A DNA stretch of 64,000 nt from Squalus acanthias (Eukaryota). Each line of letters opens with the position of its first letter. The stretch's first letter is position 1. Below are positions 45,489-62,210 of the stretch, piece by piece. A program made the translations under genes and the position numbers. The notes under the pieces were generated by a model. It had not been told where the DNA came from and made no database searches. It saw nothing but the letters and a program-made list of their open reading frames with translations. The stretch lies in NCBI GenBank assembly GCA_030390025.1, contig CM059428.1, positions 68,820,001 to 68,884,000 of the forward strand, written 5' to 3'.

Positions 45489-45776
<288 letters not shown>

Positions 45777-46686: not shown

Positions 46687-47080
46687 CTGCATTCCTCATC
46701 CAGGGGTAAATCCGGAAATTGCTCTCTGCTTGAGGGTGCACGTTTGTCTGATCCAATTTTTCGCAACCCTGTTTGCTCAGATCGCTGCAAAGCACTGGAA
46801 TGTTCTGGTCTAAGGCAGAGCAGCGCAGGTTGTAGGATTCTGAATTTAGGTTATAACCTGTGTTGTACATGGAAGGGCCGTGATAGATTGCACTGTTAAC
46901 ATTGTACAGCCCGGCCATCGGGGCTGGGAAGGCGCTGGCGCCCGCTCCATAGCTCGATCTCTGTGAGTTGGTAGCAAAGGCGCAAGAAGTTGCTTCTGTA
47001 AAGCCACTCGCGTTCTGGAAAACGGATGTCCCCGCCGTATATTTGGGAAAAAGAGCATTCACATAATACGACGAACTCAT
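46687..47080 (-). CDS. HOXA7: HoxA7 exon 1
   Basis: ATG at 47080 gives MSSSYYVNALFPKYTAGTSVFQN..., hexapeptide IYPWMR; donor GCAG|gtatgg at 46686. Joined CDS is 627 nt (208 aa). Confidence 0.97.
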
Positions 47081-47856
47081 AATTTTGTCTGGTGATTTGT
47101 TGGCCAAGACTCTTCAGTGTCGGTTTTACGAGATAGCGTGATATATGGCAGCATTACACCCCCGATTTACACCAAACACCCATTTTCCTTCGGCCCGACT
47201 TATTTCTATTCACGTGACTCGACCATGTGATCCCGTCACCCAATAGCATTACACATCACAGGTGGTAAATATCATGTTATCCGACTATTTGCAAAATAAA
47301 ATTGTGCAAGAATCATGAAAAAAATGTTTGCAACATTATTAATATAGATAGATTGTGGAACTTAAAAAGGAGGTATCTTATAACTACTACTTAACAAGCC
47401 ATTGCCCCACATGTATGTGAAGGTTTTAGGAGCGCAGGTATGTTTCCAATATTTTTGAAAATAAAATGTGTGATGAATTTGCAAGTGTTGTAATGAAACG
47501 TTTACTTGGACATAAAAAGGAGACACTTTGGTTTTACATAATAGAAATACGCATGTTTCATATATAGAACTTGATGGTCACATTGGATTAATATTAAGGA
47601 TCATTCTACACTTTGCGTTAAAAAGGAAACGTTTAAATGGTTTCAATTAAAAGAAAGGAGCAATTTCATTGTTTCTTTCTTTCCCTGTGCAGTTGTTTGC
47701 TGTCTTGCAGCACCATGAAAACACTGTACAACACTGGAAAACTGTAGCCCTGTTGAATTAATGGTCAATACACATCTAATCTTTAGATTATAGAATAATC
47801 TGTGTGGTTTTAGCGAGGACTATAGATACAAGATATAAACTGCATCAGCACTGCAC

Positions 47857-56418: not shown

Positions 56419-59400
56419 TCTCGGCAATGACACAGCAGCGCCTCTGAAAATATGAAAGAGCAGATTTCAATGTAACAACTTATCGCCGGGACAAGTACAG
56501 TCTGCTAATATGGTGCAGACGCACTTGCACGCCATTGGATAATTTACTCACGTGATTCAAAAACAACAATAAAATATAAATCAATCCGCAGCTTGTAACA
56601 GGGTCAATCTTTTATAGTCATAATTTTATATAGCAACTCCATATGTTTTTTAGGCAAAAGGATATAATCACCTCTATATATGGAAGCTGATTTCTTTGTT
56701 GCCAGCTGAGATGTGAAAAAATATTCCGTTGCCGTTCTTTTTTTTCGGGGACTATTTTATATCATAATCAATCTTCCCATCAGATGCTCGTTTTTTTTAA
56801 CGAACACCTTATAATCGTTAACCTTCACATAAAAGATTATGGAAAGAGTGAAACTATAAACTGCAGAAAAAAACAACGAAGAAAGAGATTGGACAGGTAT
56901 TTATTATTCATGCTTAGTAAAACTAAAATTATAAGCGCATTCTTAACAAATAAAAATCGTTAACGAAGTTTTAAAGGGTACCTCTGAGAAGTGGCGTGTG
57001 TACCTGCAGTTGCTAAAGATCTTTCATTTTTAAAATGAGGCGCACATAAAACACACTGTGACAATCTCCGTTTTACAACAGTTTGAGCAATAAAACTACA
57101 TGTTAGCAAACTATAGCCATTCCAAAAAGGCTCTTTACCTACAATAAACCATAATTAATTACAACTTCCGCATTCAACGTGCTAGTTTGGTTTACAGATG
57201 CAGAAATACGGATAAAATGAATTTGTTCGGGAATCGAGGAGTTCCACCATATCTCTTCAGATTCGTGGACTTTTTGTTTCATTCAGTCAGTGGCGGATTC
57301 TGTGGAGACTAAATCGGAAAGCTTCCCCGCACAGACGGTATTCGGAAACCCAATCTGTTATATGGTTAAGATACGTTCCTTTCAATAGCAAATAAAAGCA
57401 AACGATTAGATATATAAACAGATATAAAGCATAAGGGTCGTATTTCTATAAGGTTAGAGGGTGTCCTTATTACAGTGTTATCGACATATTAAACATTGTA
57501 TGTGCAACTAAATACTGTGCCTCAAAAACTTAGTAGGCCTCTATCTCCCCCTCTCTCACACACAGTGTCGATGTTAATATATGTGTATAGCGATGAACAG
57601 TTTGGCTTAGTTACATTAAAACCAACACATAGAATGTAAGTCAGAAGGCGAGTATCCCGGTTTGATCTAGTTTTAAAGTAAATGAACTTGCAATACCTTT
57701 TTATAAAATGGATAAAACCCCAGAAACAATCCATAACGTCCGTCAGTGATTTTCTAGTTGTTGCCATTTTTCTCTTAGAATAATTTATCATTGCTATTTT
57801 AACATGTAATGTTTTATTATACGTGTAAGGTTCAGCCGTCAGTGCGTTTGTTTATAAAGATCCAGTGCACAGGTTTCACAGAGCAACAATGTTGCAATAA
57901 TGTTGCATTGTGCTATCTTTCATTGGGCTACTCTTTTAAAACATATTTGATGTATGCAGTATCTCAAAATCTGAAAGAGAATTGACAATAGTCATTCTAA
58001 TCAAATGAAACTTACCCCAGTTTATAAAACGCTTGGAACTTTAAAGGCAAGCAATAATATGATTTGGTAGCTGGTAGGCGTGTAGGTTTGCAACTGAGCC
58101 GTGTTGTTTTAATGCCAATTTATATTTCTTTGTGGTTTTTTAATAATCGATATATGGAGGTATTTTGTTTATTCCTGCTACAGAAAAAAACCTTCGGTGC
58201 ATCTCGACGTTAGCAACAGCGTATAATTGCAACGCCTATCTCCAAAATTATCGTAGAGTACTTGAGCTGTTGCGTGGATCAAATAACAGAGAAATAACCA
58301 TTAAACAAAGACAATTATCAGATCCCACATTAAACCAACATGCTGTCGCCGTCGCGTTGAATCGCTTGCTCCCCCCACCATCCGCTGCCTATATAAGTCC
58401 AGTTTAAAACCTTACAGATAACTGAAATGCAACTTCCTTTTTTCGGTGTTTGGGTTCTCTTTACCCGAATCTTTCTTTATAGGTCTGTGCATTCCCCATT
58501 GTTTTTTTTGAGGGGGGGGGGGGGGGGGGGGGGTTGATTCAGCCTGTCGCCTGCGCGCCAGCATTGAGTATCTGGTCAGCGGAGTGTTACAGCGACACTG
58601 GCGGAGTGCTGAGGTCTGGAGCAGAATCGAGAACCATTCAAGTCCAGTGTTGAGCCTCAGCAAAAAAACGTTTTGTGTTTCCTGTGCAGATGGCCTGAAA
58701 TTAGGATTCAAATGTTGATTCTATATTTACAAAGTGAAGCCATGGTGCTTTGAAACTGCACTTCGCTTAAAAGAGCCGTTCGTCTAATTGAAATTCAGGT
58801 TTTGTTTTGCCAAGAAAATATATAAAAACAAACAACCATTAAAAAGCCTGGAAGAATTTAACTACAACCTTGGAATGTGTCGCGTCTTGCTGTGATACCT
58901 AAAGATTTATAGTTTTGTACGAAATGCTTGATTTTAAATGATATAGTTGAATTCGTTACAAATAACATACTGAATTCTCAATGTCAAATGGATCACGTTT
59001 TCCCCCAAAAAGGACAGTTACGAATTTTGGTGACTTGTCCGGTTTACTTTTTCAGTTTAGACTTTTGTTTGAACGTTTCACACAGGAAGCTCGTGTGTTA
59101 TTTACAAGTTGCATCTTTCAGGCTAGGAAATGAAAAATTAAACAGAAAAATCCTTTGCGTGCGTGGATGCAATTCACCAAAGGTCTCAAAAGAAATTATT
59201 ATTATCATACAAAATCGGTGCAGATGATTCAGCAACATACAGAAATACAATAATGTACCCATTCCAATTTTAAGACGCATATTTGGGTAGCGGAATTTTC
59301 TCCTGTTTTCATTGTATGGCAAGGGGAGTGGAACGAGGATAAAGCGAAACTGCTTTTTGTGTGCTGTTTTGAGTTGGTCTTTTTTTTAACTTGGGAATTA

Positions 59401-62126: not shown

Positions 62127-62210
62127 AACTGCAGTAATTCAGGCAGTTTCGTGTTGTAGAGATAGACTTGAGCCCCAACAACATGAAACTACCTAAATCA
62201 CACATCAGTT
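62127..62210 (-). ncRNA. MIR196: miR-196 precursor hairpin at the HoxA (miR-196b-orthologous) locus
   Basis: Mature TAGGTAGTTTCATGTTGTTGGG at 62195-62174 pairs with 3' arm CTACAACACGAAACTGCCTGA; it lies between HoxA9 and HoxA10. Confidence 0.97.

Follow-up and report, generated by a model that had tools for sequence, protein, structure and literature searches.

Hox dosage matters for axial patterning, and the translational control of Hox mRNAs is disputed between IRESs and short leaders that carry upstream open reading frames (uORFs). A screen that combined CAGE, conservation and footprints across all 39 mouse Hox leaders reported 13 genes with conserved uORFs, found effects of 1.2–2.5-fold for the three inhibitory uORFs tested, and gives a leader of 83–85 nt for Hoxa9 (PMC8892498). 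Inhibition by an overlapping uORF of Hoxa3 has also been published (PMC8172242), and uORFs of HOXA1 and HOXA3 are present in a human Ribo-seq catalogue (PMC10032668). For mouse Hoxa7, the annotated 1,168-nt leader is reported to be really ~112 nt long, with the upstream part being promoter: this "leader" drives a reporter without SV40, mutating both E-boxes abolishes its activity, and refTSS reads number 0 at the annotated 5' end and 379 at three internal sites (PMC9456764). Reviews of reinitiation state that after short uORFs it occurs downstream, once the ternary complex has been reloaded, and that it depends on intercistronic distance, with 79–140 nt favoured in one classic case. According to the same reviews, overlapping uORFs usually repress, UAAUG/AUGA coupling goes with long upstream ORFs and, in most cases, with TURBS or structures (with an efficiency of 3–20% per step in caliciviruses), and a few cellular mRNAs couple without TURBS (PMC10275272; PMC5972666).

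The 64-kb window, meaning the whole stretch of shark DNA that was analysed, holds the HoxA cluster on its minus strand in the order A9-A7-A6-A5-A4-A3 (Table 1). The gene downstream of the uORFs is HoxA7, as the sequence-only reading had named it: its exon 1 is 97% identical to that of Heptranchias perlo HoxA7 and 57–67% identical to tetrapod HoxA7, and it is positioned between A9 and A6. Sites for mir-196 in the 3' UTR of shark Hoxa7 have already been published (PMC2746220). An assembly gap of 162 N lies at 1647-1808, inside the HoxA3 intron.

Table 1. Features of the HoxA7 leader, its promoter and the surrounding HoxA cluster (positions in the window; offsets from the HoxA7 start)
Feature	Position	Strand	Remarks
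mir-196 precursor	62131-62204	-	upstream of HoxA9
HoxA9 start	56418	-	
Distal ORF d1	47313-47336	-	7 codons; joined to d2 by ATGA; opens the five-ORF chain
Distal ORF d2	47272-47316	-	14 codons; ends ATGA on d3
Distal ORF d3	47249-47275	-	8 codons; starts at ATGA junction, ends TAATG on d4
Distal ORF d4	47154-47249	-	31 codons; frame and stop are those of uORF1; starts at TAATG; spans the E-boxes
GTGTAATGCT, copy 1	47245-47254	-	each copy supplies one TAATG junction
E-box-like CACATG	47224-47229	-	-149; its ATG lies outside the chain
E-box CACGTG	47211-47216	-	-136; same offset as the A9 E-box in the window
uORF1	47154-47183	-	MGVWCKSGV*; 9 codons plus TAA; ATG at -103
GTGTAATGCT, copy 2	47150-47159	-	95 nt from copy 1
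Junction 1, TAATG (uORF1 stop / uORF2 start)	47152-47156	-	within the second 10-mer copy
uORF2	47077-47154	-	25 codons; ATG at -74
TCGTAAA	47125-47131	-	inside uORF2
ACAAATCA	47093-47100	-	8-mer inside uORF2
Junction 2, ATGA (HoxA7 ATG / uORF2 TGA)	47077-47080	-	imposed by the Met-Ser start
HoxA7 start	47080	-	
HoxA7 coding exon 1	46697-47080	-	3' end approximate; carries the YPWM hexapeptide
HoxA7 exon 2, homeodomain	45489-45722	-	5' end approximate
HoxA6 start	37320	-	
HoxA5 start	34398	-	
HoxA4 start	21334	-	
HoxA3 start	2690	-	

The positions, peptides and TAATG and ATGA junctions that had been proposed for uORF1 and uORF2 were all exact on the minus strand. The ATG of uORF1 (uATG1) has a strong Kozak context, with A at -3 and G at +4, and is thus not sub-optimal, whereas that of uORF2 (uATG2) is moderate to sub-optimal (G at -3, C at +4); at junction 1, the last A of the uORF1 TAA is the A of the uORF2 ATG. 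The further proposal of a leader tiled without gaps by ORFs needs a correction upstream: the 31-codon ORF that opens at 47249 contains uATG1 as an internal Met, and overlapping stop/start links go on as far as 47336. Junction 2 is forced because the HoxA7 protein starts with Met-Ser, so that an ORF in that frame reaching the start ends there; the start codon reads ATGA in four of the six Hox genes of the window (A7, A6, A5 and A4). The ATGA link is therefore supplied by the protein, and the TAATG link alone needs explaining.

Several short motifs share this DNA. The TAAT of junction 1 is presumably also a homeodomain core site, and we take TCGTAAA inside uORF2 to resemble a posterior Hox/Cdx binding site. 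The 8-mer ACAAATCA is a leader motif common to the central Hox genes A7, A6 and A5, found on the minus strand at 47100, 37351 and 34436, which is 20, 31 and 38 nt before the respective starts; the A6 and A5 leaders that carry it lack the A7-type uORF arrangement, and the three leaders align poorly. A 9-residue N-terminal extension of HoxA7 could arise from an in-frame TTG 27 nt 5' of its ATG (47107-47080, minus strand), which has G at both -3 and +4.

Of the 566 ATGA sites on the two strands of the window, 110 are preceded within 112 nt by at least one coupled ORF and 8 (1.4%) by at least two, some of these 8 belonging to the HoxA7 chain itself. Dinucleotide shuffles of the 112-nt leader gave at least two links in 747 of 20,000 cases (3.7%); the corresponding figures were 156 of 3,000 with ATG positions fixed and 545 of 3,000 with the flanks fixed too. 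The claim that the two-link chain lies beyond chance is weak on these counts.

Five coupled ORFs turned up, unexpectedly, once the search was extended farther upstream, and the full chain then reads 47336 -ATGA- 47316 -ATGA- 47275 -TAATG- 47249 -TAATG- 47154 -ATGA- HoxA7. This chain is the longest among 2,215 ATGs tested in the window, and the next independent chains have two links. At least five links were reached in 1 of 10,000 shuffles of 300 nt and in 10 of 10,000 when the proximal 112 nt was kept (ATG positions fixed: 2 of 3,000; flanks fixed as well: 30 of 3,000), and six of the eight ATGs upstream of HoxA7 overlap a stop versus 35% window-wide (p 0.026). The extra ORFs d1-d4 lie upstream of or across the E-boxes in DNA of 60–74% AT, and the five-link excess is a probable coincidence of AT-rich, TAAT-rich promoter DNA. 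With both strands counted, the window contains the 10-mer GTGTAATGCT just twice; the two copies flank the HoxA7 E-boxes and are possibly paired homeodomain sites.

Conservation was read from NCBI protein models, using 18 named HoxA7 matches and leaving out the 3 unnamed of 21. The leader is translated in two of the 18, those of Heptranchias perlo and the frog Discoglossus pictus; because a model can translate the leader only if the frame there is open, this two-model sample is biased. The Heptranchias model starts at uATG2, shows 0 mismatches to the window in 24 codons and passes into the coding frame by a 2-nt skip. The frog model has a Met at the uATG2 position followed by an open 24-codon frame, and its leader translation is identical to uORF2 at 13 of 24 residues. 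Mapped on the window, it shows indels of +1 nt (at -97) and -1 nt (at -83), both inside uORF1, with the frame corrected at a point that we infer, and the 29-nt spacing of uATG1 and uATG2 is kept. Such compensating indels are what the sequence-only reading had proposed for the human HOXA7 leader. At the uATG1 position it reads K-E-N-G, which is compatible with uATG1 (requiring AAT for Asn, N18), and at L27 a stop overlapping uATG2 is given by four of the six Leu codons, so that TAATG is compatible only. The shark stops upstream of uATG1 fall in a stretch that the frog model reads as open frame, so the frog gives no visible sign of the distal chain. An ATG with an open frame was retained in 22–49% of neutral-drift simulations, and the 13/24 identity is the neutral expectation at about 0.20–0.25 substitutions per site. 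Since the frog model keeps uATG2 and the 29-nt spacing through the +1/-1 indels, the uORF geometry is probably old, as judged from two ascertained models. Both models (P0003 and P0008) are flagged LOW QUALITY PROTEIN and are probably mis-started; to join the leader to the coding sequence, each has to skip 2 nt of the window sequence, and the skipped site differs between them. Among 23 candidates for further leader-translating models we found the same two only, a second search matched the query alone, and neither further relatives nor a Pfam match was found.

Where transcription starts determines which of the two upstream ATGs enters the mRNA. A leader of ~112 nt as in mouse would, if the shark spacing (-103, -74) applies, hold both uATGs, with uATG1 only just included. 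Only about 9 nt would then separate uATG1 from the cap, and start-codon recognition is poor that close to a cap. Applying the A9 E-box-to-start distance to A7 would instead place the start near -85, between uATG1 and uATG2.

The published uORF lists covered here do not include HoxA7. In the available text and datasets of the mouse screen, Hoxa7 is neither among the 13 listed Hox genes nor mentioned (PMC8892498). A HOXA7 row is likewise absent from the available part of the human Ribo-seq catalogue of 7,264 ORFs, in which 24 rows carry HOX symbols; the catalogue covers ORFs >15 aa, for which the 25-aa uORF2 would qualify and uORF1 is too short (PMC10032668). The mouse screen has false negatives, because it omits Hoxa3, whose overlapping uORF is in the Ribo-seq catalogue, and both absences carry limited weight. 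The available supplements of PMC11057154 contain no HOXA7 row and the primer table of PMC9456764 no Hoxa7 entry, and term searches of the accessible text of PMC13060157, PMC12048685, PMC2746220, PMC8172242, bioRxiv 10.64898/2026.10.20.760540 and 10.1101/2025.09.16.676541 returned no Hoxa7 uORFs.

Taken together, we read the HoxA7 leader as an ordinary attenuating uORF pair in which uORF1 would carry ribosomes past an inhibitory uORF2, and we put the probability of this at about 0.45. The locus would combine a conserved core promoter with a short HoxA7 leader whose two uAUGs form a cap-dependent attenuator; the geometry is observed, and we infer every later step. By analogy with mouse, transcription would start just 3' of the E-boxes, ~110 nt before the HoxA7 ATG, which would leave uATG1 close to the cap, with uATG2 well within the transcript. 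Under general scanning rules, ribosomes starting at uATG2 would end 25 codons on, atop the HoxA7 AUG, and be lost, so that uORF2 would repress. Ribosomes starting at uATG1 would terminate after 9 codons directly on uATG2, too soon to have regained the initiator tRNA needed to start uORF2; they would rescan 74 nt and could reinitiate at HoxA7. The TAATG overlap would then be a bypass guaranteeing that uORF2 is skipped, the opposite of coupling into uORF2, with the rest of HoxA7 coming from leaky scanning past both uAUGs. HoxA7 output would be damped modestly, in a way that depends on start-codon stringency and ternary-complex levels, and the uORF peptides would be without function.

The sequence-only reading had seen in the same overlaps a coupled termination-reinitiation, in which a 40S subunit ending uORF1 restarts at uATG2 and, after uORF2, again at the HoxA7 AUG. 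We consider such a true relay very unlikely. The TAATG and ATGA junctions are of the types reported for calicivirus, influenza B and SART1 coupling, a few cellular mRNAs couple without TURBS (PMC10275272; PMC5972666), and the spacing at junction 1 appears kept in the frog model. Yet of the TURBS-type traits the leader has the overlapping UAAUG/AUGA stop/start and lacks the long upstream ORF for a functional protein (9 and 25 codons, no Pfam match); UGGGA (TURBS motif 1) gave 0 exact matches and five one-mismatch sites in -300..+4. The leader folds no better than its shuffles (z 0.90; 168 of 200 shuffles fold as well), and a predicted 9-bp stem closes a leader that as a whole is not above shuffles. 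An RNA-structure element was rejected on this z value and on the lack of an Rfam match at the locus. Short ORFs moreover form the class whose reinitiation is described as always downstream (PMC10275272), junction 2 is forced by Met-Ser, and the viral efficiency of 3–20% per step would make a poor main route to a Hox protein. We regard it as unlikely that HoxA7 is reached through a TURBS-free stop/start-coupled chain passing ribosomes from one ORF to the next, with two links conserved throughout jawed vertebrates and as many as five in a shark isoform with a long leader, and that this chain sets or delays output. Selection on the five-ORF chain itself, from 47336 to the HoxA7 start on a long-leader isoform, would account for its unmatched length in the window, its rarity among shuffles and the excess of overlapped stops, but it is highly improbable: the chain was found after the search was widened, 30 of 3,000 shuffles reach five links with ATGs and flanks fixed, the extra ORFs occupy AT-rich DNA that overlaps the E-boxes or lies upstream of them, the frog model reads an open frame through the shark stops of this region and begins with a Met that has no shark counterpart, and long mouse Hoxa7 leaders are reported to be misannotated (PMC9456764). 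Least probable is a coding role for uORF2, whether for a functional peptide or as a frameshifted N-terminal extension of HoxA7. Two NCBI models do start at or run through uATG2, but these are the low-quality models that reach the coding sequence by 2-nt skips at different places; with identity at the neutral level, no Pfam match and no further relatives, both peptide and extension were rejected.

A close rival to the attenuator places the conservation in the DNA. The block, with its E-boxes, its homeodomain-type TAAT and TCGTAAA sites and their spacing, would be conserved as promoter and downstream-promoter DNA, the ORF geometry would be its by-product and the ATGs incidental, whether as parts of binding sites, at or upstream of the main starts, or rarely used; we give this somewhat less than an even chance. 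It is consistent with the promoter activity of the mouse Hoxa7 "leader", dead in the double E-box mutant, and with the refTSS reads falling at three internal sites rather than at the annotated end (PMC9456764). The A9 promoter offers a parallel: upstream of the start site it holds two in-frame ATGs 21 nt apart (56642 and 56621) in the shark, and the same pair occurs in 48 of 50 mammalian sequences among those listed, as counted by eye. Hox promoter DNA can therefore show deep conservation of ATGs together with their spacing. At junction 2, the 10-mer AAAATTATGA has a single further copy in the window, in that same A9 promoter, both TAATG links come from the repeated 10-mer GTGTAATGCT, and the absence of Hoxa7 from published uORF screens also fits. 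Against it, a transcribed AUG in strong context is rarely neutral. Both uATGs would fall within a leader of ~112 nt, the length reported for mouse (PMC9456764), and the screen that omits Hoxa7 also omits Hoxa3 and so has false negatives.

Of the uORFs from which a cluster-wide control layer had been proposed, those of A3, A4 and A6 are present in the window and that of A9 was not borne out, and a layer of this kind has already been published (PMC8892498, PMC8172242). The overlapping HoxA3 uORF (2754-2617, minus strand, 45 aa) starts inside a CCAAT box and resembles the human Ribo-seq ORF c7riboseqorf27 by eye, which suggests conservation from shark to human. The 18-codon HoxA4 uORF (21390-21334, minus strand) meets the HoxA4 start in a TAATG junction, and UUAAUGA surrounds the start of human HOXA4 as well; the ATG of this shark uORF sits in TTTATGG, which we take to be a Hox/Cdx-like site. 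The HoxA6 uORF (37392-37375, minus strand, 5 codons) is present in the shark, and the published Hoxa6 uORF has been called conserved only to tetrapods. HoxA9 has no ATG within 112 nt of its start, and the nearest uATG (56535, minus strand) is part of a CCAAT box. A 7-codon Hoxa9 uORF has been reported as conserved from mammals to fish, and a TTG near 56470 may, we presume, be its remnant.

Hox-wide uORF control is thus already published, and the HoxA7 pair is not new as a concept. The HoxA7 uORFs are described nowhere in the literature searched, which included few subscription and older papers. Upstream ORFs in homeobox mRNAs were reportedly the subject of correspondence in Nature in 1987-88, by Burglin, Wright and De Robertis and by Kessel and Gruss on Hox-1.1 (Hoxa7), and an earlier description of the HoxA7 uORFs is therefore likely. 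No citation of this correspondence turned up in the literature searched. If our preferred reading of an attenuating pair is true, HoxA7 would add a leader that the 2022 screen overlooked. Only a small effect is to be expected, given 1.2–2.5-fold in tested Hox leaders (PMC8892498). The compact geometry would allow three point mutants to separate leaky scanning, bypass reinitiation and true coupling.

Among the closest known systems are the conserved inhibitory Hox uORFs of Ivanov et al. 2022 (PMC8892498), with which HoxA7 shares a short leader, AUG uORFs of 7–25 codons and a sub-optimal uATG2. It differs in standing outside the 13 genes listed in the available text, in having two uORFs joined by an overlap, the first in strong context, and in being known here from sequence alone. 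Akirtava et al. 2022 (PMC9456764) describe E-box promoters that had been mistaken for Hoxa IRESs; these likewise have two E-box-type sites just upstream of a short Hoxa7 leader, and the available text of that paper does not discuss Hoxa7 uORFs. The overlapping uORF of the Hoxa3 TIE (Alghoul et al. 2021, PMC8172242) is similar as an out-of-frame ORF that reaches and inhibits the main start, with the AUG position kept and the peptide not; it runs well into the coding sequence, whereas HoxA7 uORF2 ends on the start codon itself. The TURBS of caliciviruses and influenza B and the UAAUG of SART1 have the same UAAUG and AUGA junctions, but these systems combine long upstream ORFs, a motif or structure and two functional proteins, of which the HoxA7 leader has none. 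Delayed reinitiation in ATF4/GCN4 is alike in geometry: uORF1 is short and permissive, and the inhibitory uORF2 after it extends to the main start. In those genes a spacer that senses ternary complex separates the two uORFs and renders bypass dependent on stress, whereas in HoxA7 stop and start overlap and the gap is zero. The bypass would therefore be constitutive, and low ternary complex would lower rather than raise HoxA7; if true, the zero-gap bypass from uORF1 to uORF2 would be a tidy variant of ATF4 logic.
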